Below, piece by piece: positions 45,223-64,000 of a stretch of 64,000 nucleotides of DNA. The stretch lies in contig JBMFRB010000009.1 in assembly GCA_049968255.1 (NCBI GenBank), positions 64,001 to 128,000 of the forward strand, given 5' to 3'. Numbering within the stretch: the stretch's first letter is position 1; each line of letters begins with the position of its first letter. A program made the translations under genes and the position numbers. This DNA is from Candidatus Sumerlaeaceae bacterium. GTDB taxonomy: Bacteria; Sumerlaeota; Sumerlaeia; Sumerlaeales; Sumerlaeaceae. Under the pieces are notes generated by a model. That model was not told where the DNA came from and searched no databases. It worked only from the letters and a program-made list of their open reading frames with translations.

Positions 45223-45258
45223 GTAAGGCCGAAGCCTTCTGCTTCGGCCTTGCTTTTT
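45223..45258 (+). terminator. Intrinsic terminator
   Basis: Stem AAGGCCGAAGC/GCTTCGGCCTT followed by GCTTTTT. Confidence 0.8.
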
Positions 45259-45363
45259 GACGTCGCTGCTGCCAGCGACTCATCAGCTTCGCTCGTAAAA
45301 GGAAGCTGCTTGCGCCTCTATGAAAGGGTTTCTGGGCCGAGAGACAGGAGCTTTGAACAAATC

Positions 45364-47400: not shown

Positions 47401-47477
47401 TGGTACCCGGTACGGGATTCGAACCCGTGATCTTCGCCGTGAGAGGGCGATGTCCTGGACCGCTAGACGAACCGGGC
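47401..47477 (-). tRNA. tRNA-Glu (anticodon CTC), CCA encoded
   Basis: Reverse complement GCCCGGTTCGTCTAGCGGTCCAGGACATCGCCCTCTCACGGCGAAGATCACGGGTTCGAATCCCGTACCGGGTACCA; anticodon stem TCGCC/GGCGA; T-loop TTCGAAT. Confidence 0.97.
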
Positions 47478-47617: not shown

Positions 47618-47660
47618 AAAAAAAAAACGGAGGCGGAGCCGCCGCGATCGGCTCCGCCTC
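47618..47660 (-). terminator. Strong intrinsic terminator ending the sugar operon
   Basis: 12-bp stem GAGGCGGAGCCG/CGGCTCCGCCTC followed by a T10 run on the minus strand. Confidence 0.85.
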
Positions 47661-47695: not shown

Positions 47696-48853
47696 TTAGT
47701 AGAGGCTCCAGTCGGACACACCGGCTTTTTGCACTTTGATGTTGTCGAAGCTCACATTGAACGTGCCACCTGTGCCGGTGCCATTGTTCGATAAACCCAG
47801 CCGCCATTCAACGATGTGCGACAAGTCAAGCCCAGGGGTCGAGCCAGCCTGCTGTACATACCAGCTCGCAGGATTGCCAAAGCTCACTGTTGTCCATCCG
47901 CTCGATGTTGGCACGGCTTGGTCTGTGGTGGCCAAATACGTCCCGTCAGCATCGATCAGCCCCAACCAGATCTGCTGATTCGTCGCAGCCGGGTCGCCTT
48001 TTACATCCACGAGGACGTTAGCTGCGCCGCTGATATTCGCTGCTTGGCTAATCCGGCGTGCAATTTGAGCTGTAACCCAGGCAGTGTTGCCCATGGTAAA
48101 TGTGCCTTTGATGGCATAATCTCCAGGGCTGCCAGAGACACCGATGGCGGAGTCAGCGACCACACTGCAACCTGAATCCACAGTTCCCGGGTGGGTGCGC
48201 TCCTGCGCATTAGCTGTGGAATCAAAAATATCGCAGTTATCGAGCACCGCGTTGAAGGGCGGGACTCCAGGGTCCGGCTCGAGTGTGTAAGTAACGGCGC
48301 CAACGGTGTCCCAGTTGGAACTATCGCCGACCACAAGCTGAATAGTCGAGCCAAGTCCACCGGGGAACGCAGCGGAGATGTCGCCAGGAATCAGTGTGTT
48401 GAGGGGGATAGAAATTTCGACATTGGTTGCAGCCTGCCAGGGGTAAAATGCAGCAACACTCGCGGGGGTTGCTGAACCATTATTGAAGGTTGCTGTAGTT
48501 TCGCCGTACATCGAGGCGCCAGCGACCAACAGATCCGAGCCGATTCCCGAGGCGAAGAGATTATACCCTGTACTTGAGGTATTATCCCCATCGATGCCGA
48601 TGAGGTCGTTGCCACTGAAGGCCACCGAGTTGTAGCTTTCGATGCGCACGTAGAGATTGGTTGCATCGTTAGCCACATAGATGGCCTTCAAGTCGCGGCC
48701 GGAGCTCTGATCCTGAGCATCCGTCCCCAAGGGGGCAATGCCATACCAGTCGTCGGCGTAACCATCGACTCCGATACTGGCAAATGTTCCTGCAAACGTC
48801 GTTGCAGAGAGAGCTAGAGCTAGAGTTGCGATGAGGGTAACGCGTGTATTCAT
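47696..48853 (-). CDS. Secreted two-domain carbohydrate-binding-like protein (DOMON-like + CBM11-like) with C-terminal DWxLY tail
   Basis: RBS AAAAGGAG; signal 'MNTRVTLIATLALALSATTFA'; 'VDGYADDW', 'VANDATNLYVRI', 'IDGDNTSSTGY', 'GWTTVSF..LDLSHI..VSFDNIKV'; ends 'AGVSDWSLY'. Confidence 0.75.
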   Translation of the reverse strand: MNTRVTLIATLALALSATTFAGTFASIGVDGYADDWYGIAPLGTDAQDQSSGRDLKAIYVANDATNLYVRIESYNSVAFSGNDLIGIDGDNTSSTGYNLFASGIGSDLLVAGASMYGETTATFNNGSATPASVAAFYPWQAATNVEISIPLNTLIPGDISAAFPGGLGSTIQLVVGDSSNWDTVGAVTYTLEPDPGVPPFNAVLDNCDIFDSTANAQERTHPGTVDSGCSVVADSAIGVSGSPGDYAIKGTFTMGNTAWVTAQIARRISQAANISGAANVLVDVKGDPAATNQQIWLGLIDADGTYLATTDQAVPTSSGWTTVSFGNPASWYVQQAGSTPGLDLSHIVEWRLGLSNNGTGTGGTFNVSFDNIKVQKAGVSDWSLY

Positions 48854-48901
48854 GGTTCTCACTCCTTTTAATCTTTCGTAAAAATGTGTCAGTCTGCTTC
48901 G

Positions 48902-50053
48902 TTACAATTCGTCAGCGACATTGTCGTTTAACGGAAGCCAGTCATCGCTGTTCACCTCCTTTCGGAGAAGCTTGCAAAGCTCGGCGGAAAAGCCGAGAAG
49001 GCCAGGTATACACCACATGTTTTCAGGATGGCAATGGGGCGGCGCATTTTGCTGCATAATAGCATAGGCGATTGCCCAGCCATGCCGGCGAAAAAATGCC
49101 TCGTTGTGGGCTCGCGTACACCCCGTGCGAGGGGGAACAATAGCTTCACCCGCCATTTCAATGACCCCCACGCCTTCGCTCTTGATCTGCTTCAAACGTG
49201 GCGAAGACACGTAAAGAGGGTGACGGAAAATAAGATGAACGATAAGCTTGCCCTCATCCATGCGCATAAGGTAGTTGAACGTACATTTTCCCACGTCGAG
49301 CTGCTTCCATTTCGCGACGATTTTTGAGGCCAAGGCCAAGACGGCTTTCGCTGTGCCTTTGAGTCGAGCGACCGGTGCAGGCCAATCGAGTAGCTCAATT
49401 TCAACGTCTTCCTGAGTTCGACATTCGAGAGGGCGAGCTTGCTCCAGGGGCAACAAAAGCGATCGGAAGATCTGAAAATGATGATGTCCCAACACCGAGG
49501 CTCCTGCCCAGGCCACGTCGCTGTTCGAGGCAAGAAGCCAGTGCGGGGCTTGGCGTACGAAGGCGGCAGCTTCCCTCAACGATTGCTCATTCACTCGCAT
49601 CGGCTCGTGAGCACGCAAATTGAGCACAAAATGACCAGGATGCAGCGGGAATGGCGTTGGGTGCGCAAAGTACGGCGTGCCCGCCAAATCGCATTCCAAT
49701 ACGCGGAGCTTTTCCTTACCGGGAGAACCGATGTTCTCGTAACATAGCGGACACGTTTGCGCCCGCGCGCCTTCCGGCAGACGATAGCTCAGGCGCGAGT
49801 AATTGACCTGCAGTCTGAGGCTGGGCAAATTCTCACGCGGTGCAAAATCGAGAAAAATGTTTGTCTCCGTAAGATGGTCGAAATAACCAACCGAGGCGAG
49901 CCACATTTCCAGCTCGTGCAAAGCCGCCTCGAGTCCTTGTGCCCGGTAGAAAGCTCCAAGCAACTTCTGCACGTCCGCCTGTTCGAGGAGCTGGCCTTGG
50001 GGGAGGACCTCATGCAGTTTGGATGCCGCGCTCATGAGCATCTCCTCGGTCAT
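48902..50053 (-). CDS. Hexose-1-phosphate uridylyltransferase, class II GalT-like
   Basis: 'AGASVLGHHHFQ' resembles Firmicutes GalT 'GGSILSHDHFQ'; 'KSEGVGVIEMAGEAIVPPR' resembles 'KKENIGLIEVMGLAVLP'. Confidence 0.7.
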   Translation of the reverse strand: MTEEMLMSAASKLHEVLPQGQLLEQADVQKLLGAFYRAQGLEAALHELEMWLASVGYFDHLTETNIFLDFAPRENLPSLRLQVNYSRLSYRLPEGARAQTCPLCYENIGSPGKEKLRVLECDLAGTPYFAHPTPFPLHPGHFVLNLRAHEPMRVNEQSLREAAAFVRQAPHWLLASNSDVAWAGASVLGHHHFQIFRSLLLPLEQARPLECRTQEDVEIELLDWPAPVARLKGTAKAVLALASKIVAKWKQLDVGKCTFNYLMRMDEGKLIVHLIFRHPLYVSSPRLKQIKSEGVGVIEMAGEAIVPPRTGCTRAHNEAFFRRHGWAIAYAIMQQNAPPHCHPENMWCIPGLLGFSAELCKLLRKEVNSDDWLPLNDNVADEL

Positions 50054-53000
50054 CGCGCTTCGACCTCCCGGAGCCAGAGTATGCCTTTTCTGCGTGGGGG
50101 ACCGTCGCCTGCCGCTTGATAGATCCGCAGAGCCGAAGCCTCGATCGGCGGGAAGCTTACCACGGATTCAGGAGTCTCTTCCTGCGTCTCCGCCACGCCC
50201 ACCGTTTTCCACTCAGCGGAACCCAAAGGCCGGACCTGGATTTCCACCTTTTTCGAGCTCCAGTAGTGGCCGTCGTCGAAGGCCCAGTAGAGTCTAACCT
50301 CCTGGAGGACGGCAGGCTCGGGAAACTCGAACTGGGCCCAATGGGGAACACTGCCCTCATCACTGGCCCACGCCGCATTAGCCCAATCAATGCCAGTGGT
50401 GGAGGTGGCCCCGTCATTCAGCGGTTTCTCTGAGTAACCGAGATAGCAAGAATCCACAAGCACCTGGAGGTCGGACCTGCGGAGAATCGAAGCCTTTTGT
50501 GCCAGAATTGTCACAGGGATCTCAACCTGCGTGAATGTGCCATTCTGATGACGGAAGGCCAAATTCAGCAGGCACTTCGCGTCCTCACTGACGGGGCGCT
50601 TTCCCTCAAGCTTGACTTCTATTTTTGCGTGGCCTTCGGCATCAAGTTTGATCGGCGCTACGGGACCAACGCGCAATTCGTTACACCCGGACGATGCAAC
50701 CAGAGAGACGTCTATCGGTTTGTTCAAATTATTGATCAGTTCTATATCGAGGATCGCCTTGTCGCCAAGGACGACCTTGTTCGGAATCCCCGTGACAAGA
50801 ATAGGAGGAAGCACCGGCACCGTCGTCACATAGTAAGGCGCCAGGCTGTTGGCATCAGTATTAGCAATCCGCCAGGTGAGGAAGGTGCCTGGTTGCGCGT
50901 CGCGGGGAATGGTGATCGTGAATTGCTTGCTCGCGGTTCTTTGCAAACCATGGGCTGGGCCGAGAGCCCACTCGAACGAAAGCTCCTGGTGCCGGCTGTT
51001 CCCAACTAACTCGATGGTATAGACCGTGCCCGGAACGGCAGCTTTTGGGTAGTTCGCCGCGAAGCTCTGCTTGCTTACGAGTTCTTCGCGGGCAGCCGCA
51101 AGGCTTAGCCATGCCGAGAAAGCTCGAAGCCACTCTTCCCGGTAAAGCTCAGGCAATGTTGGTAACGTCTCTGCAAGAAGCTGGCGCAACTCTGCACTGC
51201 GCTGCGGATCTGCGCTCAACGTGGCGATTTGCTTTGCGATGTCTGCACTCAAGTGCCCATACCGCACCTGCTTGCGCGACAGAAACTCGATCTCCTCCAA
51301 TTGCTCAGCTATAGCTGTGCTCAGAGCGTCCTGATCTCGTCTCACGAATTGCAGCGCCACCGATCGGTGGGCTCCCACAGGGCAATCGACCGTGGTGACT
51401 TTCCCGCTGGCAAGCATTTGCCCGCTGAGCGCTTCAAGAACAACGTACGGACTATCGCCCGTAAGGCGCGGATCCAATCTGACCTTTACAGGAACAGTCG
51501 TTTCGGCCGTGTTGAAGAGAGTGAGATAAAAGTTTGGTGCGGCTAATAGGCCTGACAGCCACGGGCCACCTCCCCAACGTTCGACGAGGACACTTGACGC
51601 GTCGACCGAAGCCAACGTCACGGGCTCCCATCCTGCTGCCGTCGTTCGTTGCTGCACTCGCATGTACTTCAGGAAGAGAGGCCGATCCTCGTTATAGAGC
51701 GTCGGCTGCTCCCAATAGGGGTTGTTAGCCGCATCATGACTGAAAAAACCGGGCCAAAAACCGTAATGGAAACAATGCGCAAAGTATTCCTCGACTTTTT
51801 CGCCACGAAAATCGGCGAATGCCACATTGAGAAGGAAACAATAGGGCTTGTGGTAGAGCATCGTGCGGATAAAGTCGAGGTTTTCTGTTCGCGCCCAATG
51901 CCCCCAGGGAGTTTCGATCCCAAGAATGTCGAGAAAATGCACACTCCACGGCCATTGATAAAGCGCCGTGTTGGCCATCAAAAGGGCTCCGCGCTCGTGA
52001 AGCCTTCGCCCCACCTCTGCCGCAAATTCGAAGTTGTGCATCATGATGACTTGAGCGGCGGCCCCTGATTCGCCATCAAACGTGAGGGGAAAATCTGAGG
52101 CAACCAGATGCTCATGACGGAAATTCAATCGGTACGAATCCCAACCCTCGAAGCTGTCCATGTAGAGTCCGGCTGGCATTTCGGGATCGAAAGTCCCCTG
52201 CTCGAAGTCTGCGTTCGCTAATGGCAGCGAGGACGATTGAACCTTCGCAATCCAGACCTCTCCTGAGGGGGCTGCGAGGCGTAGCCCTTTCAGCTTCTGC
52301 TGCGGAAGCACAAATTGATATTCACGGAATGTGCCTGCGAGAACCTCTTCCCCCACGGTCAAGGTTCCATTTTCCGTGAGAACATCGATTTTTAGCCGGC
52401 CGTTTTGGCGTCCTTTGGCCGTAACTCGGAGAGTCTCGCCGGCAGGAGAAGCCACGACCTCCTTGAATTTTTGCGTAATGTTTTCCCCCGTCGCTAGATA
52501 AACAGCACGTCCTCGCGCGCCCACAACACCGTCGGTCAAAACGCCGCCACCCACCCACTCGGCGGGAGAGTCGTTGGCGCGGCGTCGCATGAGCTCGATG
52601 TACGGATTCCAGTTGAGATCAAACGCTGTGACTGGATTTTTGTCAGTCCGCAGCAAATCCGGATCGCAGTTGGTAGGAATCCTTGCCCCTTTTGCCCAAG
52701 GCGTGTTGACCCATTCGAGCAAAAGTTGTCCCTGAGCATCGAAGGCTGCTCCCGAACGCACCGCGGACCCTTGCGGTGTGTCGAGTGATGCAAGGTAGTC
52801 GTTTAGCTTACTCAGTTGTCTCGGGAACGAATCCTCCAACGAGATGTATTGCACGGGCGGTTCGCAGTAAACTAGGGGTTTGACCCCATTCGCATGATCC
52901 CAAGCCACCGACACATCCGGATGATACTCGTGGAAAGCGAAACCAAAATCCTCCACCCGCTCGACCTTGTCCAATTGCGTGAAGGGCATCCACTGGCCTT

Positions 53001-53808
53001 CGCGTTGGACTCGTTTGGCGTACGATGCTGAATTCAGTTGATAGTAGATTTGCGCCAAGCCACGGAAACCAAACTCGCGGGGGGCATCGAAAAGATCGAA
53101 TGCAAAGGGCACTCGACCCCGGAGCTTACGTGGTCGCTGGCTCAACGTCACGTCGCATTCGGCCACCAGTGCCCCTCTTTTTCCATCCCAGCGAATTCGG
53201 TGAATCCGTGGCTCGTTGAGAGGCAAGCCAACCCCTAAGGCCCCATGGAAAGTGTTGATCCCCCCGAACGAGTAGCGAGACATTGCTTTGTGCGCTCCCG
53301 CAGGCGTAAATATCGCCACGCATTTCTCTTCTCCGGGCGAGACTTTCTCTACTCTGTGCAAGTCAACAAGCCACAGCGGGGCGCGGTCGCTCACCGGCAC
53401 AATCATGGCGAAGGTAAGCGGAATATCCTCGGCTGACTCAGTGACAAGTTCCCCTTCAGCCCTGAGCGCTCCAGATTTCTCATGCCACGAGGCTCGAACG
53501 GTAAGCTGCGAGTCGAACTCTAGCTCTTGACGGATTACCCCGTTCTCGTTTTTGACCGAAATACGTTTTGGCGCAATCTCGGCGCGCGACTCGCCATCCT
53601 GCGTGGGCTTTTTGCCGAGCCAACGTTTAACGGCGAAGCTGACAGGAGCTTCTGAAATGGCACGTCCATTCTGCACGACAAGCACCTTGTTGCCATCATG
53701 CAGTTGCATGCTCAGTGCCGCGTAAGCAGCATCACCAGCAAATGCCAAGGTGGCAGCTAGGGCAGCCGTTCGTACCAACTCTTTGAAAAGATTCGTACGC
53801 ACTTTCAT
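50050..53808 (-). CDS. Large secreted glycoside-hydrolase-like protein with C-terminal discoidin (F5/8C/CBM32-like) domain
   Basis: Signal peptide; barrel-like motifs 'GLYMDSFEGW', 'LLMANT', 'DILGIE'; C-terminal 'AWASDE..HWAQFEF..LRIYQ..LREVE'. Confidence 0.65.
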   Translation of the reverse strand: MKVRTNLFKELVRTAALAATLAFAGDAAYAALSMQLHDGNKVLVVQNGRAISEAPVSFAVKRWLGKKPTQDGESRAEIAPKRISVKNENGVIRQELEFDSQLTVRASWHEKSGALRAEGELVTESAEDIPLTFAMIVPVSDRAPLWLVDLHRVEKVSPGEEKCVAIFTPAGAHKAMSRYSFGGINTFHGALGVGLPLNEPRIHRIRWDGKRGALVAECDVTLSQRPRKLRGRVPFAFDLFDAPREFGFRGLAQIYYQLNSASYAKRVQREGQWMPFTQLDKVERVEDFGFAFHEYHPDVSVAWDHANGVKPLVYCEPPVQYISLEDSFPRQLSKLNDYLASLDTPQGSAVRSGAAFDAQGQLLLEWVNTPWAKGARIPTNCDPDLLRTDKNPVTAFDLNWNPYIELMRRRANDSPAEWVGGGVLTDGVVGARGRAVYLATGENITQKFKEVVASPAGETLRVTAKGRQNGRLKIDVLTENGTLTVGEEVLAGTFREYQFVLPQQKLKGLRLAAPSGEVWIAKVQSSSLPLANADFEQGTFDPEMPAGLYMDSFEGWDSYRLNFRHEHLVASDFPLTFDGESGAAAQVIMMHNFEFAAEVGRRLHERGALLMANTALYQWPWSVHFLDILGIETPWGHWARTENLDFIRTMLYHKPYCFLLNVAFADFRGEKVEEYFAHCFHYGFWPGFFSHDAANNPYWEQPTLYNEDRPLFLKYMRVQQRTTAAGWEPVTLASVDASSVLVERWGGGPWLSGLLAAPNFYLTLFNTAETTVPVKVRLDPRLTGDSPYVVLEALSGQMLASGKVTTVDCPVGAHRSVALQFVRRDQDALSTAIAEQLEEIEFLSRKQVRYGHLSADIAKQIATLSADPQRSAELRQLLAETLPTLPELYREEWLRAFSAWLSLAAAREELVSKQSFAANYPKAAVPGTVYTIELVGNSRHQELSFEWALGPAHGLQRTASKQFTITIPRDAQPGTFLTWRIANTDANSLAPYYVTTVPVLPPILVTGIPNKVVLGDKAILDIELINNLNKPIDVSLVASSGCNELRVGPVAPIKLDAEGHAKIEVKLEGKRPVSEDAKCLLNLAFRHQNGTFTQVEIPVTILAQKASILRRSDLQVLVDSCYLGYSEKPLNDGATSTTGIDWANAAWASDEGSVPHWAQFEFPEPAVLQEVRLYWAFDDGHYWSSKKVEIQVRPLGSAEWKTVGVAETQEETPESVVSFPPIEASALRIYQAAGDGPPRRKGILWLREVEAR

Positions 53809-55289
53809 TTCTCAGGGTAAGCAAATGGTGCTCCGTCAGGCAGCGTGTCTGCCGTGTTCCACTTTGCGTCGGTGGTTGCGAACCACATTTTGATCTTTTT
53901 GCCCGAACTCAGGCCAATCCGCGATTTAGGGATCACATAAATGACGCTGTTGCCGCTTCCTTGTGGCCCAGGGGTAAGGGACCCTAACTGATCCCAGCCC
54001 CATCCGGTTCCCGCGTTCTTCTGATGTTTAAAAAACGTCGTTCCCTCGACCATAAAATCGGCACCCGAACGGGTTCCGTCACTATAACCGGTTGCGTCAT
54101 CACCGTCGGCATTGATAAAAATGTGGATGCCGTCGAGCTTAGGGGTTGCTGCAAACTTGAGTTTGATTGTGAGTTTATCGGCCGATTCCGCTAGCTCGGC
54201 GCCAACGAGATCGAGAGTGGGATCGGACGCATCTCCTTGCGGATCGGTAAGGGACGTGACGTTCTCCCCGGTCAGGGACTGTGCTGTGCCCTTGTTGCCA
54301 CCGGTTTCTGCAGCGGGCTTTCCCTTACTCGTCGGCGAACTTTGTTCCGCTACTTTCGAAGATGCTGGCGCGGCTGGTTTCTCCGCACTTTCTCCTTGGC
54401 TAGCTGCTGGCGCAGCTGGTCGCGCATTCGAAGAGGCTTTGTTGGTCACAATGAGAGGCGAGCCCTCAGGGGCCCAGTCCGCTGGTTGCCAGTTCGATGT
54501 TTGGCTACCTACCCACAGTCGGACTTCCCCAGCCAGCGGCTTCAACAAGTTCGCTGGGACAGAAAACCGAAGTGAGGAACCCTTCACTTCGACAGTCACC
54601 GCGCTGACCTGGTCAAACTTCCACTCGACCGAGTTATTGCCAGAAAATTTGTAAAGGAATCCCCCCTGGATGACGTAATCGGCGCCTTTGAAAGTGGCTG
54701 TCGCATAGCCCGTGTCTTCATTATCGTCGGAATCTATGAAGATGTTGAACCTTGGCGATGTCTGAACGGATGGCGAATCTGATACATCAACTCTCACTCG
54801 GAGCTTATCGCTTAGCGACGCGCAGACTCGCAGCACATCGAGATCGCCGCTTGGCGCATCGTTGGGGTTGTCATCCATGCACGCCATTACTGCGTCACTG
54901 GTTGCCCCACCCATTCCGCTCGCCTGGCCTGCCCCCGCCTGAGCCACTTGTTTCCCATCGAGAAAAGTGAGCAGCTCAGCAGGCGTGTGGATTCTTTCTG
55001 CTCGCCGAAGCTCTTTTCCCTCCGCAAAGAGCACAAAAGTCGGGGTCCACGGGACATTGGCTTGAATGGCTCTCTGCATACCTTCTGAAGAGTCTGTGTT
55101 CACGCGCTCGAATCTGAGGCGAGCAAGGTGATCGCGCACACGGTGATCCGTAAGAGCGTCTTCACGCACCTCCCTACTGAGCACACTTTTTGGGGATTCG
55201 AAATAAATGAGACTTTGACTCGCGCCACGAATCCCCATAGGGATGAGCAGCGCACTTAGGCACAGTGAACTATAACGATAAATCTTCAT
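53805..55289 (-). CDS. Secreted protein: CxxC-less thioredoxin-like domain + two DOMON-like repeats
   Basis: Signal peptide; 'VPWTPTFVLF..GKEL'; repeats 'IFIDSDDNEDTGY..GADYVIQG' and 'IFINADGDDATGY..GADFMVEG'. Confidence 0.7.
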   Translation of the reverse strand: MKIYRYSSLCLSALLIPMGIRGASQSLIYFESPKSVLSREVREDALTDHRVRDHLARLRFERVNTDSSEGMQRAIQANVPWTPTFVLFAEGKELRRAERIHTPAELLTFLDGKQVAQAGAGQASGMGGATSDAVMACMDDNPNDAPSGDLDVLRVCASLSDKLRVRVDVSDSPSVQTSPRFNIFIDSDDNEDTGYATATFKGADYVIQGGFLYKFSGNNSVEWKFDQVSAVTVEVKGSSLRFSVPANLLKPLAGEVRLWVGSQTSNWQPADWAPEGSPLIVTNKASSNARPAAPAASQGESAEKPAAPASSKVAEQSSPTSKGKPAAETGGNKGTAQSLTGENVTSLTDPQGDASDPTLDLVGAELAESADKLTIKLKFAATPKLDGIHIFINADGDDATGYSDGTRSGADFMVEGTTFFKHQKNAGTGWGWDQLGSLTPGPQGSGNSVIYVIPKSRIGLSSGKKIKMWFATTDAKWNTADTLPDGAPFAYPEK

Positions 55290-56413
55290 GACGCAACCTC
55301 TCTAAAAAGAAATCCTTCCGTGATAGGCCCAATTTGCACTCCGTGGGAAGGACGGACAACCCAGGCTCGCAAATGATGTTCTTCGATAAAGTAACGCCGG
55401 ATGCGCTCAGCGTGTTGCTGGGCCAAAAAGAAAAAGGAACCACCGCAACCGCTCCCATTGATTTTGCCCCCCAAGGCACCCTGTTGGAGCCCAGCGGCAA
55501 GGTACTCATCGATGCGCGGGTGTGACACCTTGATAAGCTTGGAAAGATTGAAATGATGCTTGTTGAGCAATTGCCCTAGCAGCGTTTGGTCCACTGGTGA
55601 GCTTTTCAAAAGCTGGCGGGCTGCGTTCGTGAGGTGAGCATTTGCGATAGAGCCCTCTAAGAGTTCGAGTGCATCGTTACTGTAACGACGTGTCAAATGA
55701 TCGAGCGGCGGATACCCCGATTGTTTCCATCCCGCGAAATCAAAGCCCAACGCTTCTAGCGCTTGCCGCCGCTGCCGTAGCAGTCCGTTCGTGTCCTTTG
55801 GAATTCCGCTGTCGACGAGCACGAACTCGCCAATGGTCGGCAGCAGACGTTCGAAGGCAAACGGCGGTGTCGTATCGAGCCAGATTACGCCCCCCAATGC
55901 GCTCGCGAAATGATCCATCATCCCCCCAGGAGCTCGGAATTCAAGCACCTCAGATTCGTAAGCCAGTCGCGCAATAGCTGTTGGCTGTGCGGCACGGGGG
56001 TCCCCCGCAGAAGCAAGCAGGAACGCACACCAGGCGACTTGCAAAGCACTCGAACTCGATGCCCCACTATTGATGGGAATTGTGCTCCGCACGGTGACGT
56101 CGTAGCCACGTGGCCAACTCACGCCCTGGCGCAAGAGGATATTGATGGCGGCAGGCAGGTAGTCCCGTTCGTGCTCATAACGATTTTCTTCGCTCAACGA
56201 GAGAACCCGATGTTCGCCGATGTCGGGGAGATGAACAACGCAACACAGCTTGTCCAAAGGCAGTGCGCGGACTGTCACTCGAAGATCAACTGCCGCCGCA
56301 ATGACGGGCAACCCTAAGTAATCCTGATGTTCGCCGAATAGGCAAATGCGGCCTGGCGCGGATGTTTCGAGGGCCTTGCCAGCAAGAAGAACGTTTGGCT
56401 CAAGCCGTTGCAT
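55286..56413 (-). CDS. Galactokinase-like GHMP kinase
   Basis: 'SAPGRICLFGEHQDY', 'PINSGASSSSA', 'GMMDH', 'GKINGSGCGG'. Confidence 0.85.
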   Translation of the reverse strand: MQRLEPNVLLAGKALETSAPGRICLFGEHQDYLGLPVIAAAVDLRVTVRALPLDKLCCVVHLPDIGEHRVLSLSEENRYEHERDYLPAAINILLRQGVSWPRGYDVTVRSTIPINSGASSSSALQVAWCAFLLASAGDPRAAQPTAIARLAYESEVLEFRAPGGMMDHFASALGGVIWLDTTPPFAFERLLPTIGEFVLVDSGIPKDTNGLLRQRRQALEALGFDFAGWKQSGYPPLDHLTRRYSNDALELLEGSIANAHLTNAARQLLKSSPVDQTLLGQLLNKHHFNLSKLIKVSHPRIDEYLAAGLQQGALGGKINGSGCGGSFFFLAQQHAERIRRYFIEEHHLRAWVVRPSHGVQIGPITEGFLFREVAS

Positions 56414-57512
56414 GGCTCCCCTCCTTGGCGAACTCTGTCAGTTCAACCACTCGATTCTCGCGGATTGAGCGCTCTGCGGCCAGCGCGACGACGAGCGAGC
56501 TTCGTCCCACGGCTCCGTTGGCAGCAGGTTCCTCGCGCGTCTCCAGGCAGCGCAAAAACTCGCGACGTTGACGCTGACAGCCGATGTGGCCCAGCCCCTC
56601 GCTATCAAGCACGGGATCAATGACCTCTTCTCGCCAGGGCTCACCGGCACCCCCACAGCCTAGCCGAGTGTCTCGATAAGCGCACATTTGGCTGCCGTCG
56701 GCAAACAGAGCCCCAATCTCGAGCCCCTCAGGCATGACGTTGTGGGGCTGAAGATACATGCACAGCAAAAGCGCCGCTCGTGCCCCATTGGCATATTCGA
56801 CAATCACCATCGCATGGTCCACGGTATCGATCTGTTCGATCACCCGTGGTGGATCCGGGCAGTAATCACACGTGACCAACGTGCCAGACTTCAGCACGTG
56901 CTGGCCTCCCCGCGCGACGACCCGCAGAGGGGGGCTCCCAATCATCCAATTAAAGATGTCAAAATGATGACAGTCCTTTTCGACGATGGTGCCCCCCGTG
57001 GCCTCTTGTGAGTAGAACCATGGCTTCTGAGGGAAAGGCTGGCGCAACTCTTTGCACCACATGAACAGTGCCGGGGCTTTCTTCAGGTGTGCGAGCTCCG
57101 TCATTCGCCGATACAAGGTGGCATAGCGATACACCAATCCGATCTGGAGAATCCGCCCTGCCTGTTTCGCGGCCGCAAGAATCGCATCGCAGTCTTCGAT
57201 CGAAGTTGCGACGGGTTTTTCCAAAAAAATGTCGCAACCTGCTTCCAAGGCCATTTCCGCCACCGGCCGATGCAGCCGGTCGGGAACGGCGATCACGCAG
57301 GCATCGGGCTTCACGCTGCGTAGCATTGTTTGGGTATCTAAAAAATGCGGTGGACCGGACTCGTACCACTCCACGCCGTATCGGCGCAGTGCGTTTGGGT
57401 CCGGATCCACGGTGGCAACCACTTCACAATTCTCAAGCTTGGCGAAGCCACGAACGTGCGCGCTGCCCATGTCTCCGCATCCGATCACGGCTATGCGATG
57501 GCGTTTGCCCAT
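56400..57512 (-). CDS. Gfo/Idh/MocA family oxidoreductase
   Basis: 'IAVIGCGDMG', 'VPDRLH', 'LEKP', 'GGTIVEKDCHHFD'. Confidence 0.9.
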   Translation of the reverse strand: MGKRHRIAVIGCGDMGSAHVRGFAKLENCEVVATVDPDPNALRRYGVEWYESGPPHFLDTQTMLRSVKPDACVIAVPDRLHRPVAEMALEAGCDIFLEKPVATSIEDCDAILAAAKQAGRILQIGLVYRYATLYRRMTELAHLKKAPALFMWCKELRQPFPQKPWFYSQEATGGTIVEKDCHHFDIFNWMIGSPPLRVVARGGQHVLKSGTLVTCDYCPDPPRVIEQIDTVDHAMVIVEYANGARAALLLCMYLQPHNVMPEGLEIGALFADGSQMCAYRDTRLGCGGAGEPWREEVIDPVLDSEGLGHIGCQRQRREFLRCLETREEPAANGAVGRSSLVVALAAERSIRENRVVELTEFAKEGSHATA

Positions 57513-57538
57513 AACAACCTCTCGGTAGATGGCTTGGT

Positions 57539-58135
57539 TTAGTCGTTCGACCTGAAGAAACGGATCCCGCCACCCGCACGCAGGACGTCGCCATTGGACA
57601 CCGTGCCATTCGTCGGGTCATATTTGCCGTTGAGCGGCTCGGCGATATCATTGTCCGATGCGCACCCAACGAGATCGAAGTCCAGATCTGGCCCCATGCA
57701 GCGAACCGTCCACCCCGATTCGCCATTTAGCAGGAACGTGTTCGTCGAGTAGAGGAAATAGCGGGGATAGGGGCCGTACCAGTCGTCATAATTTTTCGCA
57801 GCGCAAGTCCCCGTTGCAGCAGGATATTTCTTTGGCTTTCCCGCCTGGAATACATCCTGAGGAACCGACGAGATGTAGGCCACGGGCGTGGTCACCAAAT
57901 GGATCTGCTGCTCACCCAAAAGGCCGCGGACAAAGACCGTGAAAGGCGGATAATGGTTGTTGTCCACGTAATAGGACTCGAGAGCTGTCGCGATCGAACG
58001 CAGATCCGACTTCGCGCGCGAAACCTTTGATCGCGTCTGAGCCTCGAGGAAATTGGGAACCGCAATTGCGGCAAGGATCGCGATGATGGCCACCACGATC
58101 AGCAGTTCGATGAGCGTAAAGCCTGAGCGCTTCAT
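57539..58135 (-). CDS. Prepilin-type N-terminal cleavage/methylation protein (GspG/pilin-like)
   Basis: RBS GGAGGA; 'MKRSG|FTLIELLIVVAIIAILAAIAVPNFLEAQTRSKVSRAKSDLRSIATALESYYVDNNHYP'; 'TTPVAY', 'GPD', 'YDPTNGTVSNGD'. Confidence 0.9.
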   Translation of the reverse strand: MKRSGFTLIELLIVVAIIAILAAIAVPNFLEAQTRSKVSRAKSDLRSIATALESYYVDNNHYPPFTVFVRGLLGEQQIHLVTTPVAYISSVPQDVFQAGKPKKYPAATGTCAAKNYDDWYGPYPRYFLYSTNTFLLNGESGWTVRCMGPDLDFDLVGCASDNDIAEPLNGKYDPTNGTVSNGDVLRAGGGIRFFRSND

Positions 58136-58180
58136 GTGAATCCTCCGAAAAATTGGAATTAATGCCACTTGTGCTACTTC

Positions 58181-58238
58181 ATATTTTTCACACGCCAAAA
58201 AAATCGCAAAAATCTTCTTCATTCGTCAAGATGAAAAA
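58181..58238. promoter_or_regulatory. Candidate ROK (NagC/Mlc-type) operators upstream of the pilin-headed operon
   Basis: ATATTTT-TCACACGCC-AAAAAAA (TT-N9-AA, 58181-58203) and TTCTTCAT-N8-ATGAAAAA (58215-58238), which covers a minus-strand TTGACG. Confidence 0.4.
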
Positions 58239-58548
58239 ACACCCTCGGAAGCAATAATCTGTGACATATTGAAAGAATAATAGTTACGCTATTGCTCGGG
58301 GTGGTGAATTGAGCTTTCGTGTGTGGGAAATCATCGGGAACATCCTCGCATTATGGAGCAGAGCAACGGGGAGCGTGATATGATCGGTCACGTGATAGAG
58401 ATAAATAGAAATGAAATTATTGTGTTAATAAGAAATACACTCATGAGCATTCGCGAGCGCAGTGCTTGCACTCCTCGCAAACAAAAAGAACTGATTGAGC
58501 GGGCTTAGCTAGCCCATCTCTTTTGAGCCTTCTACGGGGATAGATTGA

Positions 58549-59799
58549 TCAGATGAGCTCGTGAACCTCGATGTGGCTAGCCTGAAAAATGTGATGCATC
58601 ACGCATCCCACAGCACCGAGAGACGTGAGGTTCACGTCGAGGTGACTGACCGAGATTTGGGTGTGATGGAAGATGGGGGCAAGGGTATGGCGCTCAGCTT
58701 CTTTTAGACTTTGCTCGAAAAATAAATCGTAGGAGCGGCAGATGCGGCCGGCCAAGATGACCGCTTCGGGATCGAAAAGATTCATGACGGTGGCCAAAGC
58801 GCGACCGAGAAAGTCGGCGAAAACCTGAAATATCTCACGCGCGGTTTGTTCACCGTCGCGCGCCTTGCGTGCCAACTCTTGCACGTTCTCCACTGCCAGC
58901 CCTCGTTGCCGAGCGAGTCGCATGAGTCCCGCTCCCGAAGCGGTGTTTTCGAGAGCCTCGGGATGGCCGAGAAAACCGGGAACGTCGTGCTGCCCAGCGG
59001 GGACGTAGCCAATTTCACCGGCAAAGCCGTGCGTTCCACTATAAACGCGGCCCTCGAGAAACAGCCCCAAGCCCAAGCCTTGCCCAACGTTGAGGATCGC
59101 GAAAGAAGTATGTTGGTGGCCATCGCCGAACCAATACCAACCATAGGCCATCATGCGAGCGTCGTTATCCACGATCGTCGGTGCGCCGGTTTGGCCTTCC
59201 ACCCATTCGCGCAGCTCGTCGGCCAGCTCGGGATCACCCGAAGGACGACCGTGTGAGGAAGCGACCAAGCCGGGGAGCGCCACACCTATTCCAGCGACGG
59301 GGGGAGAGCCCGAATCGGCACGCTGACCAACCAGGGCAAGGATGTGTTCTAACCACTGTCGATAGCTAGCCGGTGTTGCGAGCGAGGGCGTTGGCTCTTC
59401 GAAACGTGCCAGGATTTCCCCGCCTAAGTTCGTCAAGATGGCAATTGTGGCTGTTCGTCCGATATCAATGCCTAGGATTGAAGCCGCGCTCGCGTTCATT
59501 CTGAGCGGAATGGGCCAGCGCCCTCGCGGAATCACGCGAGGTTTCTCTTCATAAACGAGCTTTTCCGCCAGAAGATCCTCCACAAGCTCGGAGGTGTGAG
59601 GCACGTTGAAGCGGAGAATCTTCGCGATTTCGCTGCGCGATATTGGCCCTTTCTTGCGAATGACGTTGAGCACGGCGTGTTTGCGCACTCGCCGTTGTTC
59701 GGCCGAGCGCTCCGCAGGAGTCTTTGTGCTAGGGCGGATCACAAGGTCGTTGCGGACATGGAGTTGCCAAAGCTTTTCGGGTTCAACCCTTGAGGCCAC
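58549..59799 (-). CDS. ROK family transcriptional regulator (NagC/XylR-like)
   Basis: HTH 'GPISRSEIAK', 'RGRWP', 'GIDIG', 'GIGVALPG', 'VDNDAR', 'GLGLG', 'GEIG'; start uncertain (GTG 59799). Confidence 0.9.
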   Translation of the reverse strand: MASRVEPEKLWQLHVRNDLVIRPSTKTPAERSAEQRRVRKHAVLNVIRKKGPISRSEIAKILRFNVPHTSELVEDLLAEKLVYEEKPRVIPRGRWPIPLRMNASAASILGIDIGRTATIAILTNLGGEILARFEEPTPSLATPASYRQWLEHILALVGQRADSGSPPVAGIGVALPGLVASSHGRPSGDPELADELREWVEGQTGAPTIVDNDARMMAYGWYWFGDGHQHTSFAILNVGQGLGLGLFLEGRVYSGTHGFAGEIGYVPAGQHDVPGFLGHPEALENTASGAGLMRLARQRGLAVENVQELARKARDGEQTAREIFQVFADFLGRALATVMNLFDPEAVILAGRICRSYDLFFEQSLKEAERHTLAPIFHHTQISVSHLDVNLTSLGAVGCVMHHIFQASHIEVHELI

Positions 59800-60628
59800 T
59801 TGTCGCGATCCCTTCAACAAAAACTTTTTGGCTGGCGTAAAAAACAAGCAAGATCGGAATAATCGATACCACGGCGCCCGCCATCATCATCGGCCAGTTG
59901 CTGCTGTACTGCGTTTGCAGAAAGCTCAGTCCAGCAGTGAGGGGCATCTTTTCGATCGTGTCAATGTAAATCAAGGGACTCAAGAGATCGTTCCAGCTCG
60001 TGATGAATGTGAAAACACCCAGCGTTGTCAAAGCTGGTTTGGCGAGAGGGAGATAAATTCGGAAGAGCACGCCTCCCGGCGTCAGGCCATCCACCAGTGC
60101 TGCCTCGTAAAGGTCGCGCGGAATGGCCAGAAAAAACTGCCTGAGAAAGAACACCGCGAAGCCTCCCCCGAAAAACGCCGGTACCCACAGGGGATAATGA
60201 CTGTCTTTCCAACCGAGTTTCTGAAAAATAATGAAGACGGGAATGAGCGTGGTTTGCCACGGCACCATCAGGGTGATCAGTGCAGCCGCAAAAAGAAGCG
60301 TCCGACCGGGAAAACGTAAGCGTGCTAACGCAAAAGCTCCCATGGAACAAGAGAGAAGCACCCCGACAACATTGAGTGTCGTAATTTTCACGCTATTGAA
60401 GAAAAAGCGCTCTATGGGCAGAGTTTTCCTAAGAAGCTGGTAGTTTTCGAAATGCCAATGCTCGGGAAAGAGCATGGGAGGATAGCGAAACGCTTCCTCC
60501 ATCGTTTTGAATGATGTGGTGACCATCCACACGAAGGGAAAGATCATCACGACTGCGATAAAAAGCAGAAGGGCGTATATGCCGCCGGCCCAAAGCAACT
60601 TTTGCCAATTCTTGCGATTCTTTCTCAT
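59783..60628 (-). CDS. Carbohydrate ABC transporter permease (MalG-like)
   Basis: EAA loop 'IPRDLYEAALVDG', 'FITSWND'; ATGA overlap with the upstream permease. Confidence 0.93.
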   Translation of the reverse strand: MRKNRKNWQKLLWAGGIYALLLFIAVVMIFPFVWMVTTSFKTMEEAFRYPPMLFPEHWHFENYQLLRKTLPIERFFFNSVKITTLNVVGVLLSCSMGAFALARLRFPGRTLLFAAALITLMVPWQTTLIPVFIIFQKLGWKDSHYPLWVPAFFGGGFAVFFLRQFFLAIPRDLYEAALVDGLTPGGVLFRIYLPLAKPALTTLGVFTFITSWNDLLSPLIYIDTIEKMPLTAGLSFLQTQYSSNWPMMMAGAVVSIIPILLVFYASQKVFVEGIATSGLKG

Positions 60629-61559: not shown

Positions 61560-62873
61560 CTACTTTCCCGGTTCGGTTTGTGGCCTCTCGGCCAGGATTT
61601 TGTCCACCGCTTGGGCGGCATCTTTGGCAGCAGAGTCAATGTCCTTGCGCCCGAGCCACACTGCTTCAAGTTCTCCTCGAATCGTCTCTTCAATTTTGGC
61701 AAAATTGCGGGTGAAATCCAGGGGTTGGGCATAGGCTAGCTGATCGAGGAAGAACTGTTTTCCCTCAACGCTTCCGTCGAGGTACATGGGCGATTCAGCC
61801 ACTTCGCGCATAGCAGGAATCGAAGTTCCGGATTTGGCAAGTTGCTCCTGGTACTCGCGAGAGGCCAGAAATTTCAGAAACTCCCAAGCCGCCTCTTTGT
61901 TTTTGCTCTTGGCGTAGATGGCGTTGCCCAGGCCATTGACAGGGGCCGCCTTGCGTTTGCCTTTCGGTAGCGGCGCGATCGCCCACTGGAAACTTTTCGC
62001 CTCCTTGAACGATTTGATCATCCAGGATCCCTCGGGCGACATCGCCACACGCCCCGTCAGAAACATGTTGCTGCCGAATGTCGAGCTTTGAGCTACGTCG
62101 GGAGCGACCTTATGCTTCACCACCAAATCGGAATAGAACCGCAGTGCTTCGATCGCTGCAGGCTCTGCCAGCATGCATTTCGTACGAGTTTTGTTCAGGA
62201 TCTCTCCTCCATTTTGCCACACCCAGTATCCCCAGTGTACTTCCATGGAGTCGTAGCCGGCGTTGAAGCCGAAGATATCCGTGCGGCCATCCTGATTTTC
62301 GTCCACAGTGCAAGCTTTCGCCTTTTCGAGGAAATCTTTCCAATCCCAGTCGGGCTTTGGAAACGCAACACCACGCTTTTGAAAAATTGATTTATTATAA
62401 TAAATCGCAACGGTGTTACAGTCGCGAGGCAGCGCCCACAAAGCGTTGTTCTCTTGGAAAATGGACACAGTCTGCGGATAATAGCGGTCAAGCGAAAGAG
62501 AGGTGTCGCGGTCGACCCATGGCTTGAGATTTTCAAGTTGGCCGCGTGCCGCATAGTCATTCGAGTAACCGCCATTGAGAAGGAAAACGTCCGGGGCTGT
62601 CCCGGCGGCCATCTGCGCCTGGAGCTTATTCCAGTATTCTCCCCACGACGCAAACTCGAGCACCACCTTAATGTTGGGATGTTTTTTCTCAAATGAGCTC
62701 AGAAGCTGGCGCTCCGCTTCGATTTCTTCTGGAAGTCCCCAGCGCGAGTATCGGATCGTTGTCACACGAGCCTCTGCTGGAGTCCCGGCGTGCTGCTGCG
62801 AGCATCCGCCCAATGCCAACACGAGCGCCGTTGCCATGGTTGCTGCCGCCACAAACCCAGCGTAATTCATCAT
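61560..62873 (-). CDS. Carbohydrate ABC transporter substrate-binding lipoprotein (CUT1)
   Basis: Lipobox 'LALGGC'; 'AGTAPDVF', 'IYYNK', 'WDWKDF', 'SKNKEAAWEFLKF'. Confidence 0.92.
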   Translation of the reverse strand: MMNYAGFVAAATMATALVLALGGCSQQHAGTPAEARVTTIRYSRWGLPEEIEAERQLLSSFEKKHPNIKVVLEFASWGEYWNKLQAQMAAGTAPDVFLLNGGYSNDYAARGQLENLKPWVDRDTSLSLDRYYPQTVSIFQENNALWALPRDCNTVAIYYNKSIFQKRGVAFPKPDWDWKDFLEKAKACTVDENQDGRTDIFGFNAGYDSMEVHWGYWVWQNGGEILNKTRTKCMLAEPAAIEALRFYSDLVVKHKVAPDVAQSSTFGSNMFLTGRVAMSPEGSWMIKSFKEAKSFQWAIAPLPKGKRKAAPVNGLGNAIYAKSKNKEAAWEFLKFLASREYQEQLAKSGTSIPAMREVAESPMYLDGSVEGKQFFLDQLAYAQPLDFTRNFAKIEETIRGELEAVWLGRKDIDSAAKDAAQAVDKILAERPQTEPGK

Positions 62874-63796
62874 TGTTCTCCCTTCTTTTGAGAAAGCATC
62901 CATTCATAGGTTTTCTGAAGGCCGTCATGCAGGCTGATTTGCGGCCTCCACCCCAAGGCCGCCAGTCGCTCGATCGCCCCCCGCGAGTGACGCACGTCCC
63001 CTGGTCGCTCCGCTGCATGCACGATGGGAGAATTCGAGCCTGCAATTTGCCGGATTGTCTTGGCAAGTTCGTTGATGGTGATTCGTCGGCCAGCAGCCAC
63101 ATTGTACACTCCTTCTCCCTTCTCGGCGGCCAGCAAATTCGCGCTCACGACATCATCGACGTAAATGAAATCCCTGGTCTGCTCACCATCGCCGAAGATC
63201 GTCAACGGCTTGCCTTCAATGGCCCGAGCAAAAAAAATGGAAACAGCTGCGGCATAGGGACTCGTGGGATCCTGACGCGGCCCAAACACATTGAAATAAC
63301 GCAAAGCCACAGTTCGCATCCCGTTCCTTCCATTCGCTAAACTAACATAGTATTCCCCCGCAAGCTTTGAGATGGCATAGGGCGAGACCGGCGCGGGGAG
63401 ATCACTCTCCGAATGTTGAGGGCGATCGACATTGCCGTAAATTGCTGACGTAGATGAAAAGACAAAAGCTTTCACACCTGCCTGGGCTGCTGCACTGAGC
63501 AGAACAATGGTGCCAATCGTATTGATCTGCTCCGCCTCAATGGGGTGTTCCACGCTCTCAGGCACGCTCACCAAAGCCGCGAGGTGGTGAACGACATCCA
63601 CGTCGGCTACGGCCTGCTCCACCATCGCTGAATCTGTCACGGATCCTTGAATCAGCTCAACGTCCAGGCCAGCGAGGTTTTCCCTTTTCCCCGTGCGAAA
63701 ATTGTCAAGAATTCGTACCTGCGCGCCTCTTTTTAGCCAAGCATGAGCAATGTGGCTCCCGATAAATCCCGCGCCGCCTGTCACAAGGACTTTCAC
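62870..63796 (-). CDS. NAD-dependent epimerase (UDP-glucose/UDP-GlcNAc 4-epimerase-like)
   Basis: RBS GGAGG; '[13 protein letters not shown]', 'SVPESV', 'SPYAISK', 'LRYFNVFGPRQDP', 'RDFIYV'. Confidence 0.9.
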   Translation of the reverse strand: MKVLVTGGAGFIGSHIAHAWLKRGAQVRILDNFRTGKRENLAGLDVELIQGSVTDSAMVEQAVADVDVVHHLAALVSVPESVEHPIEAEQINTIGTIVLLSAAAQAGVKAFVFSSTSAIYGNVDRPQHSESDLPAPVSPYAISKLAGEYYVSLANGRNGMRTVALRYFNVFGPRQDPTSPYAAAVSIFFARAIEGKPLTIFGDGEQTRDFIYVDDVVSANLLAAEKGEGVYNVAAGRRITINELAKTIRQIAGSNSPIVHAAERPGDVRHSRGAIERLAALGWRPQISLHDGLQKTYEWMLSQKKGEQ

Positions 63797-64000
63797 GCAA
63801 CCCAACCTCCGACTAGATTTACTGGAACACAACTCTAGGAGGCACAAACAATTTTTCCAGAAAAATAATCTTCTCCTCTTCCTCGATCTGTGCCATGTGC
63901 TTCTGTTTCTTTTGGATCACGTAGCCTGCCGCGGGCGCTCAACTCTTAGAGCCAATCACAGCGGCCAAGCTCACTCTTCGCCCAGCGAACTTCCAGCAAT

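Follow-up and report, generated by a model that had tools for sequence, protein, structure and literature searches.

Why should a bacterial operon for sugar catabolism begin with a gene for a type IV pilin-like protein? The question is raised by a locus of a Candidatus Sumerlaeaceae bacterium (phylum Sumerlaeota, class Sumerlaeia), whose genome assembly (GCA_049968255.1) comprises 3.12 Mb in 31 contigs and is 95.75% complete. The locus lies within a stretch of 64,000 nucleotides (contig JBMFRB010000009.1, positions 64,001 to 128,000), which was analysed as a whole and is called the window here; positions without a contig label are those of the window. An earlier note on this DNA had suggested a pilus-linked system for glycan capture. 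We find that the pilin is very probably a functional part of the locus, and the evidence for this comes mainly from the layout of the operon and from its inheritance across the class.

The interval 47696-58238 holds seven closely packed open reading frames (ORFs), all on the minus strand. They encode, in this order, a prepilin, a Gfo/Idh/MocA-type oxidoreductase (GFO), a GalK-like GHMP kinase, a repeat protein of 494 amino acids (aa), an exported protein of 1252 aa, a GalT-like protein and a protein with a DW-x-LY tail. The gap between the pilin and GFO genes is 26 nt, and the GFO and GHMP kinase genes overlap by 14 nt. Downstream of the kinase gene there are three overlaps of 4 nt, and a gap of 39 nt separates the GalT-like gene from the last one. 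A terminator scan detected no terminator between the pilin and GFO genes. Upstream of the pilin gene, a spacer of 413 bp (58136-58548) extends to a ROK-family regulator gene; its GC content is 0.448 compared to 0.52-0.60 nearby, and a promoter-like block within it is kept in a three-genome alignment of our genome (G000) with G002 and G006. Judged from the sequence, the pilin is almost certainly co-transcribed with the other genes of the locus. The earlier note had described a tightly coupled seven-gene run, preceded by an AT-rich intergenic region of ~410 bp and followed by a strong terminator, and its coordinates, gene order, short gaps and overlaps were all confirmed, as was the terminator with its GC-rich stem and T run. 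The ROK-like operators that it had placed in the spacer were not established. An inverted-repeat search, the three-genome alignment and a k-mer comparison with the region upstream of the epimerase gene yielded no more than a weak 15-nt repeat and a single common 9-mer. An Rfam scan revealed no riboswitch; its sole match was a tRNA gene (Table 1).

The inheritance of the pilin was analysed by searching 73 Sumerlaeia genomes one by one. Hits were accepted up to E-values of 1e-15 for the pilin head, 1e-60 for the GFO protein and 1e-40 for the core of the 1252-aa protein, and were obtained in 11, 10 and 11 genomes, respectively. All three occurred in the same 10 genomes (G000, G002, G006, G023, G034, G056, G058, G060, G061 and G070), which represent four families. 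In G019 the sole match is a distant, partial homologue of the 1252-aa protein, and 61 other genomes lack all three. Because most genomes within each of the four families lack all three, the set is gained or lost together. The pilin gene lies inside the operon in 9 of the 10 genomes and directly upstream of the GFO gene in 8, at distances of 21-57 nt. In G002, G006, G034, G061 and G070 the genes are arranged pilin-GFO-GHMP-(494-aa)-large protein-GalT-(last gene), and G058 has the same order minus the 494-aa and last genes; in most of these loci an epimerase-(GNAT)-ABC-ROK block precedes the operon. In G023 the order is 494-aa protein, large protein, pilin, GFO and GHMP, while the pilin gene of G060 is placed after GalT. 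Tree building with 50 pilins placed the 10 operon-type orthologues in one clade (SH-aLRT support 92), and 18 other full-length paralogues from our genome fell outside it. No product of the locus is better conserved than the pilin head, whose identity in G002, G006 and G034 is 89%, 79% and 68% compared to 63%, 46% and 41% for the 1252-aa protein. The linkage of pilin and operon is far beyond chance, and the idea that the pilin is a dedicated part of the sugar locus holds.

The longest ORF of the pilin gene opens at 58222. The true start was assigned to 58135, where a GGAGGA ribosome site is followed by a prepilin leader (MKRSG, then FTLIELLIVVAIIAILAAIAVPNFLEAQTRSKV). The N-terminus, MKRSG followed by FTLIELLIVVAIIAILAAIAV, has the features of a class III signal peptide, namely a basic leader ending in Gly, F at +1, E at +5 and a hydrophobic helix of ~20 residues. 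The protein matches the Pfam model N_methyl PF07963 (1.1e-8, 34.8 bits, cut-off 21.2) and the NCBIfam model TIGR02532 (34.6, cut-off 16.3). According to profile comparison with solved structures, type IVa major pilins are the best structural relatives of the family: Geobacter PilA-N (3.2e-20) and Myxococcus xanthus PilA (5.3e-20; 8tj2 aligned at profile positions 11-111) scored ahead of GspG (1.8e-10). With the model for type IVa major pilins of the M. xanthus PilA type (NF041775), the pilin scored 72.1 bits where 400 are required, the match being confined to residues 3-66, and is not a member. Type IVa major pilins have a disulfide-bonded C-terminal region; the 10 pilin orthologues contain 0-4 Cys, none of which is conserved. 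The earlier note had pointed to the DUF1559 prepilin-like proteins of Planctomycetes. In Pfam and NCBIfam scans at E up to 0.01, neither PF07596 (DUF1559/SBP_bac_10) nor TIGR04294 (H-X9-DG) matched the pilin, and this assignment was given up. A canonical GspG of a type II secretion system (T2SS) operon was ruled out as well, with no gsp genes, that is no GspD/E/F or minor pseudopilins, at the locus and a separate GspG of 136 aa encoded at C2:451765.

A motif scan showed that the pilin belongs to a family (NFLEAQ-RSKV...YDPTNGT-S-GD) with 21 members in the genome, one of them truncated and one cut by a contig end. The first ~55 mature residues are near-identical among the members, and the other heads are only 25-38% identical to the head of the operon pilin. 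An idea that the operon head is richer in aromatic residues was dropped (11-14% vs 9-16% in other paralogues). Profile searches returned 3,576 cluster representatives of the family when E-values up to 1e-30 were admitted, and 32,795 with the limit relaxed to 1e-10. Atlas clusters of the YDPTNGT-S-GD kind are commonest in Sumerlaeota, and the motifs of the operon-type orthogroup are present in just 2 of the 150 best family representatives. Residues specific to this orthogroup lie in the stretches KNY..WYG, PRYF.Y, NTFLLNG and RCMGPD.

Searches for ATPases, secretins and platform proteins revealed no assembly genes of a T2SS or of type IV pili (T4P) at the locus, and therefore the pilin must use shared machinery. 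Elsewhere the genome, which is of diderm type, encodes one prepilin peptidase (Peptidase_A24), four GspF/PilC platform proteins (T2SSF), three secretins and 16 T2SSE-family ATPases, of which seven are full-length and GspE/PilB-like and nine PilT-like. The receptor barrel (PF00593) and plug (PF07715) of TonB-dependent receptors had no match genome-wide at E up to 0.01, and control genomes gave matches. The earlier observations that GspD/E/F and PilB/C are missing locally, that a pilT gene lies at ~5.6 kb (Table 1) and that the window contains no TonB-dependent receptor were correct, and the last of these now extends to the whole genome at its given completeness.

Judged by its products, the locus is a glycan-utilisation locus with a GalK/GalT/GalE-type route. 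The top solved relative of the solute-binding protein is the arabino-oligosaccharide binder 6rjy (3.8e-46). The GFO protein is closest to 8qc3/8qc2 (1.6e-26), which we take to be NAD-dependent glycosidases, and the nearest solved relatives of the kinase are galactokinases and a GalNAc kinase. The GalT-like protein is ~100 aa shorter and has only NCBIfam matches below cut-off, whereas the GalK-like and GalE-like proteins pass the Pfam cut-offs. The epimerase orthologue is present at the locus in G002, G006, G056, G058, G060, G061 and G070. The ROK gene lies directly upstream of the pilin gene in G002, G058, G061 and G070 and is missing at that site in G006. Because the locus combines a GH129/GH36-like exported enzyme (glycoside hydrolase, GH), a CBM32 module (carbohydrate-binding module, CBM), an ATP-binding cassette (ABC) importer and GalK/GalT/GalE-type genes, the most likely substrate is a polymer of the alpha-galactoside or (N-acetyl)galactosaminide type, with alpha-linked galactose, GalNAc or GalN. 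In G058 and G060 a GNAT acetyltransferase gene is located between the epimerase and binding-protein genes (L056:15601-16527 and L053:5811-6767), which hints at an amino-sugar substrate in these lineages. ORFs of 328 and 246 aa occupy this position in G056 and G070, and tblastn revealed no GNAT copy in our genome. The GFO orthologue of G070 (C33:24463-25536, L054) carries one in-frame TAA and is a pseudogene or the product of an assembly error.

The 1252-aa protein has a single Pfam domain, F5/8 type C (residues 1131-1233), which resembles chitosan-binding CBM32 domains (8e-6). Its core (residues 80-800) was modelled with AlphaFold2 (AF2) using 46 homologues, at a predicted local distance difference test (pLDDT) score of 92.9. 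Foldseek searches with this model gave GH36 alpha-galactosidases, a Flavonifractor GalN-galactosaminidase and the GH129 enzyme NagBb as top matches (E-values of 2.5e-9 to 5e-7, TM-scores ~0.4). With the structural aligner VIA, NagBb (5wzp) had a Z score of 17.5 (443 residues aligned at a root-mean-square deviation of 5.4), closely followed by 9ayu (Z 17.2, 483 aligned), ZgGH129 (Z 16.0) and GH66, GH31 and GH36 proteins (Z 13-16). The model has the GH129/GH36 (clan GH-D type) architecture of an N-terminal beta-sandwich, a (beta/alpha)8 barrel and a C-terminal beta-sandwich. In the model the fold class is clear, GH129/GH36-like; the fold does not imply the activity, and several GH families score close. 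Pfam GH129 (PF11308) and DUF6259 (PF19773), to which Atlas look-alikes had pointed, were rejected as the family of the protein, as neither model matches it, and the GH129 model has no match in the whole genome. The acidic residues D551, E554, D627 and E632 (full-length numbering) are invariant in the family and are candidate catalytic residues. The core defines a family without a Pfam model, which comprises proteins of ~840-940 aa in many metagenome-assembled genomes of Verrucomicrobiota, Abditibacteriota, Armatimonadota and Planctomycetota (loci L066-L111).

The 494-aa and 388-aa exported proteins are non-catalytic. Neither has a Pfam match or a credible sequence match in the PDB (that of the last gene product is nanobody-level noise). 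The 494-aa protein matches the N-terminal domain of the last gene product at 26% identity, shows an internal repeat by tblastn and has weak thioredoxin matches. The tail of the last protein (47696-47722) was also observed elsewhere. In the genome, 12 ORFs of at least 150 aa end in [DEN]-W-x-[LIVMT]-[YFE], for example C5:258431-261778, C3:265173-268151 and C1:134981-136684, and one of the tail-bearing proteins is a GH18 protein of 1115 aa. Most of the tails also fit [AS]-[GA]-V-x-[DE]-W-x-L-[YF], several follow a Pro/Gly-rich linker, and most of the proteins have signal peptides. Orthologues from other Sumerlaeia families end in ...[DE]WMT[LM]E or ...DWNTFQ. The tail may be an undescribed C-terminal tag for sorting or anchoring. 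Clustering of tailed proteins with pilins was rejected, as only 3 of the 12 have a paralogue within 10 kb, vs ~1.6 expected (21 windows of 20 kb, 3.1 Mb).

Table 1. Positions of genes and signals of the pilin-headed glycan locus and its surroundings in the window
Feature	Position	Strand	Basis and remarks
GalE-like NAD-dependent epimerase	62870..63847	-	Pfam Epimerase 4.4e-64; first gene of upstream block
Sugar ABC solute-binding lipoprotein (lipobox LGGC)	61560..62903	-	SBP_bac_1 3.3e-43
Two ABC permease genes	60625-61557, 59783-60712	-	BPD_transp_1 3.1e-19, 1.4e-15
ROK-family regulator	58549..59847	-	Pfam ROK 2.2e-43
Candidate promoter-like element TTGCGA-17 nt-AAATAT	58181..58209	-	Within AT-rich spacer; inferred, absent from consensus-scan list
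Operon-dedicated type IV pilin-like gene	57539..58135	-	198 aa; class III signal peptide; NFLEAQTRSKV...YDPTNGTVSNGD family
Cytoplasmic Gfo/Idh/MocA oxidoreductase	56400..57512	-	GFO_IDH_MocA 1.4e-24; no signal peptide
GalK-like GHMP sugar-1-kinase	55286..56413	-	GHMP_kinases_N/C and GalKase_gal_bdg (galactokinase signature)
Exported 494-aa repeat protein	53805..55289	-	Signal peptide; two copies of a domain common to the last gene; thioredoxin-like N-terminal part
Exported 1252-aa putative alpha-glycosidase	50050..53808	-	Beta-sandwich and TIM barrel, GH129/GH36/GH31 type; C-terminal CBM32-like F5/8-C
Short type-2 GalT-like hexose-1-phosphate uridylyltransferase	48902..50053	-	NF003629 1.2e-27, below cut-off; DUF4922 8.9e-5
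Exported 388-aa two-domain protein ending ...AGVSDWSLY	47696..48862	-	Orthologue alignment
Intrinsic terminator, operon end	47630..47660	-	12-bp stem, 10 GC pairs, T8 run
tRNA gene	47404-47477	-	63.2 bits; just past operon terminator
650-aa CarboxypepD_reg-domain protein	45250-47202	+	Converges on operon end; likewise in G002 and G006
PilT-like gene	5648-6472		

Homologues of the first ~800 residues of the 1252-aa protein are common in Verrucomicrobiota, Armatimonadota, Abditibacteriota, Planctomycetota and Kiritimatiellia. An ORF-based scan of 46 loci outside the Sumerlaeia revealed a prepilin-type gene in four (L096, L097, L106 and L107), and a six-frame scan, run on 10 loci whose homologues are long, added L103. 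In two loci from metagenome-assembled genomes of Kiritimatiellia, L103 (3996-5793) and L107 (2774-4389), the prepilin gene is directly upstream of a GFO-like gene, with a 4-nt overlap in L107, and further downstream the locus encodes homologues of three other operon products (494-aa protein, large protein and last gene product). The prepilins of these two loci are 56% identical to each other and have only the N-terminal helix in common with the Sumerlaeia pilin. From these comparisons, the arrangement looks like a parallel recruitment of an unrelated pilin.

Taken as a whole, the locus is best explained by a sugar-induced, locus-specific pilin for glycan capture or uptake, an explanation that we hold tentatively and at slightly less than an even chance. 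The sugar would induce the pilin, which would be transcribed from the conserved TTGCGA-17 nt-AAATAT element and processed by the single prepilin peptidase. Shared type IV filament machines encoded elsewhere would assemble it via the N-terminal helix that is near-common to the ~21 paralogues, and the locus-specific head would perform an outer-envelope step for one glycan. Most likely the head would bind the polymer, and retraction of the filament would draw it to or through the outer membrane. The exported glycosidase would then cut the polymer outside the cytoplasm, the ABC system would import the fragments, and the imported sugar would pass through the route of kinase, uridylyltransferase and epimerase. 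The pilin step would thereby replace the TonB-dependent SusC/D step missing from the genome. Capture is favoured because the pilin has type IVa relatives, the genome encodes nine PilT-like ATPases and no TonB importer, and dextran-binding fibres and the pilin CbPilA provide precedents (see below). Capture or uptake as the actual role, as against export or display, is nonetheless somewhat doubtful.

Several observations weigh against a glycan-capturing pilin. G026 lacks the operon but has an orthologue of the pilin, 51% identical in the head. The 73 genomes are kin, so that the counts overstate independence and allow no formal test. An AF2 model of the pilin from 27 sequences had a mean pLDDT of 54.5 and fell below 50 past residue 65, leaving the head unreliable and no binding site visible. 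The neighbourhoods of the paralogues count on the same side. Among 97 ORFs within three ORFs of the 20 other family members in our genome, a GH-type gene was found beside three members (GH18, GH77 and GHL10) and a ROK/LacI regulator or sugar-binding protein beside none of the 20; the remaining neighbours were haem, tRNA-modification, hydrogenase, signalling or unknown genes. A third orthogroup (C5:27170 in our genome), present in 33 of the 73 genomes, had its neighbours conserved only in the single genome fetched from its own family; none of 8 genomes of other families kept them. As the other 20 paralogues lie away from sugar genes and one tested orthogroup lacks conserved neighbours, the pilin family as a whole is not glycan-specific, and the enrichment of paralogues near sugar genes that the earlier note proposed to test was not seen in our genome. 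Of that earlier interpretation, the dedicated and co-inherited pilin, the shared machinery and the lack of a TonB receptor remain, whereas family-wide sugar-gene enrichment and DUF1559 membership do not. A 653-aa CarboxypepD_reg-domain protein is encoded directly upstream of the C5:27170 paralogue, a linkage that is lost outside the family.

The strongest rival explanation, which we consider unlikely in itself but nearly as probable as capture and about as good a fit to the data, is that of a cargo-specific pseudopilin, which would form an endopilus or short pilus that exports or displays the exported proteins of the locus without binding glycan. The pilin matches T2SSG PF08334 (2e-6, score 28.3, cut-off 21) and the GspG model TIGR01710 (1.5e-15, model positions 1-96 of 134), which would fit a T2SS-type endopilus, and its orthologues lack a conserved disulfide. 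The TIGR01710 score of 57.4 is, however, below the cut-off of 88.85, and the family profile is closer to type IVa pilins than to GspG. To our knowledge, T2SSs use one major pseudopilin for all cargo, and the canonical 136-aa GspG is already encoded elsewhere in the genome. The gene arrangement in two cases speaks for export or display. The 23.5-kb locus of G056 lacks the pilin gene, whose orthologue (68% head identity) lies on another contig. Its neighbours there encode exported proteins, namely a last-gene homologue, a GHL10 protein, an S13 peptidase and a protein of 839 aa; W-x-LY-type tails are present on three of these, and the arrangement is no less compatible with export or display than with capture. 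A second pilin orthogroup (C6:75502-76173 in our genome) is present in 37 of the 73 genomes, and the order pilin, 272-aa exported protein, ~1260-aa FG-GAP protein is kept in 8 of the 9 genomes fetched, from four families. Taken together, the G056 arrangement and the pilin-FG-GAP module fit export or display better than capture. On the other side, G058 keeps the pilin with only one exported protein, the glycosidase, at the locus. Export by a T2SS has also been suggested for the alginases of a cluster that bears a pulG-like gene, as far as the account in PMC13274419 goes. In our genome the second-orthogroup module spans C6:67800-76200 (locus L008:299-8695), and its FG-GAP repeat protein ends in ...GSDDWQHYE. 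Two of the three orthogroups tested are bound to a module; within one genome some pilin orthogroups are bound and others free.

It is quite improbable that the pilin is a co-regulated but interchangeable major-pilin paralogue that only raises adhesion or biofilm formation when the sugar is present. The ~21 paralogues are indeed scattered over the genome with near-identical N-terminal 55 residues, most genes beside the other 20 have no relation to sugars, and the C5:27170 orthogroup shows that a family member can lack conserved neighbours outside its own family. An interchangeable pilin does not, however, account for one that tracks a patchy operon without exception (10 of 10 genomes, four families) and is absent from 62 of the 63 others, nor for a head that is better conserved than the enzymes of the locus. 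Finally, a pathway of pilin glycosylation or sugar-nucleotide salvage, in which the epimerase, Gfo-type dehydrogenase, kinase and uridylyltransferase would make a UDP-sugar that decorates the pilin, is extremely improbable: it draws on a weak match of the GFO protein to the UDP-GlcNAc 3-dehydrogenase model NF040723 (2.9e-26, far below cut-off) and on the GNAT genes of G058 and G060, but Pfam scans revealed no glycosyltransferase or oligosaccharyltransferase at the locus, the GNAT is missing from our genome, and the ABC importer, the ROK regulator and the exported GH129/GH36-like enzyme with its CBM32 indicate catabolism.

A literature search, supplements not covered, found no published account of pilins in glycan loci of Sumerlaeota. 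In Bacteroidota, polysaccharide utilisation loci (PULs) of the SusC/SusD type encode the regulator, surface capture, exported glycosidase and importer for one glycan together. The present locus likewise combines regulator, exported glycosidase and importer in one glycan-specific locus; it differs in that the genome has no TonB-dependent transporter (SusD itself was not searched) and that uptake across the inner membrane is by an ABC system. In the galacto-N-biose/lacto-N-biose (GNB/LNB)-Leloir route of bifidobacteria, a kinase, a uridylyltransferase and a 4-epimerase act downstream of the glycosidase. Here the kinase is of the GHMP and not the APH type. The modelled enzyme has the same three-domain fold as NagBb (5wzp, GH129) and the Flavonifractor plautii GalN-galactosaminidase (9ayu, GH36), but its sequence identity to them is 8-12%, and it is far larger, having additional beta-domains and a CBM32.

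The layout of a pilin within a glycan locus is a known pattern that is mechanistically unexplained. In Verruconatronum alginivorum, PMC13274419 describes an alginate-responsive cluster with a pulG-like pseudopilin that has 67 genomic homologues, clusters that are substrate-induced according to proteomics, and one pseudopilin among three over-expressed genes outside the clusters. The parallel to our locus is close, with a pilin gene of many paralogues (67 there, ~21 here) in a polysaccharide cluster far from secretion or pilus machinery; that system, however, belongs to Verrucomicrobiota, alginate and polysaccharide lyases, and as far as that account goes, co-inheritance was analysed only here (PMC13274419). 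CbPilA of Caldicellulosiruptor bescii is described as a xylan-induced major type IV pilin that binds xylan and cellulose and mediates attachment (10.1101/614800); it is a working example of a polysaccharide-linked, glycan-capturing pilin. As presented there, it is the single major pilin of a monoderm in a complete T4P locus beside carbohydrate-active enzymes, unlike the orphan gene of a catabolic operon here, with ~21 family members and a common stem (10.1101/614800). In Planctomycetes, pili-like fibres are reported to bind dextran, and the account ties them to no gene (PMC5394234). Large, scattered prepilin-type families, often beside genes for exported proteins, are described for the DUF1559 (H-X9-DG) expansions of Planctomycetota and other bacteria of the Planctomycetes-Verrucomicrobia-Chlamydiae (PVC) group (PMC8567305, PMC2754498, PMC4807772). 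In Tuwongella, for instance, 91 N_methyl+SBP_bac_10 proteins are encoded throughout the genome, frequently with signal-peptide genes alongside (PMC8567305), and DUF1559 is called a solute-binding family in accounts that offer no binding data (PMC2754498, PMC4807772). The pilin described here differs from these in lying outside PF07596/TIGR04294, with a head of the PilA/GspG-like 'YDPTNGT-S-GD' family.

To this pattern the present case adds strict phyletic co-occurrence, a pilin family outside DUF1559, a cross-phylum parallel, a background free of TonB receptors and a fold-level assignment of the main enzyme. Among GH129/GH36-like enzymes, the 1252-aa protein represents a branch that has no Pfam model, is uncharacterised and occurs commonly in Verrucomicrobiota. 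The locus bears on how large glycans pass the outer membrane without SusC/D-type transporters in the PVC group and neighbouring phyla, and on the function of the huge pilin-like families of these bacteria. As a speculation that we regard as distinctly less likely to be true than false, each glycan locus in diderm phyla without TonB glycan transporters (Sumerlaeota, and also Kiritimatiellia, Lentisphaerota and Planctomycetota, which would have recruited unrelated heads in parallel) would have its own pilin, whose head would recognise the glycan or a locus enzyme and whose near-invariant stem would plug into a few shared retractile machines. The polymer would then be fished to or through the secretin, as DNA is by competence pili, in a counterpart of SusC/D. 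With one pilin orthogroup, one operon, strict co-inheritance, a predicted substrate class and a small genome, the locus offers a testable case.

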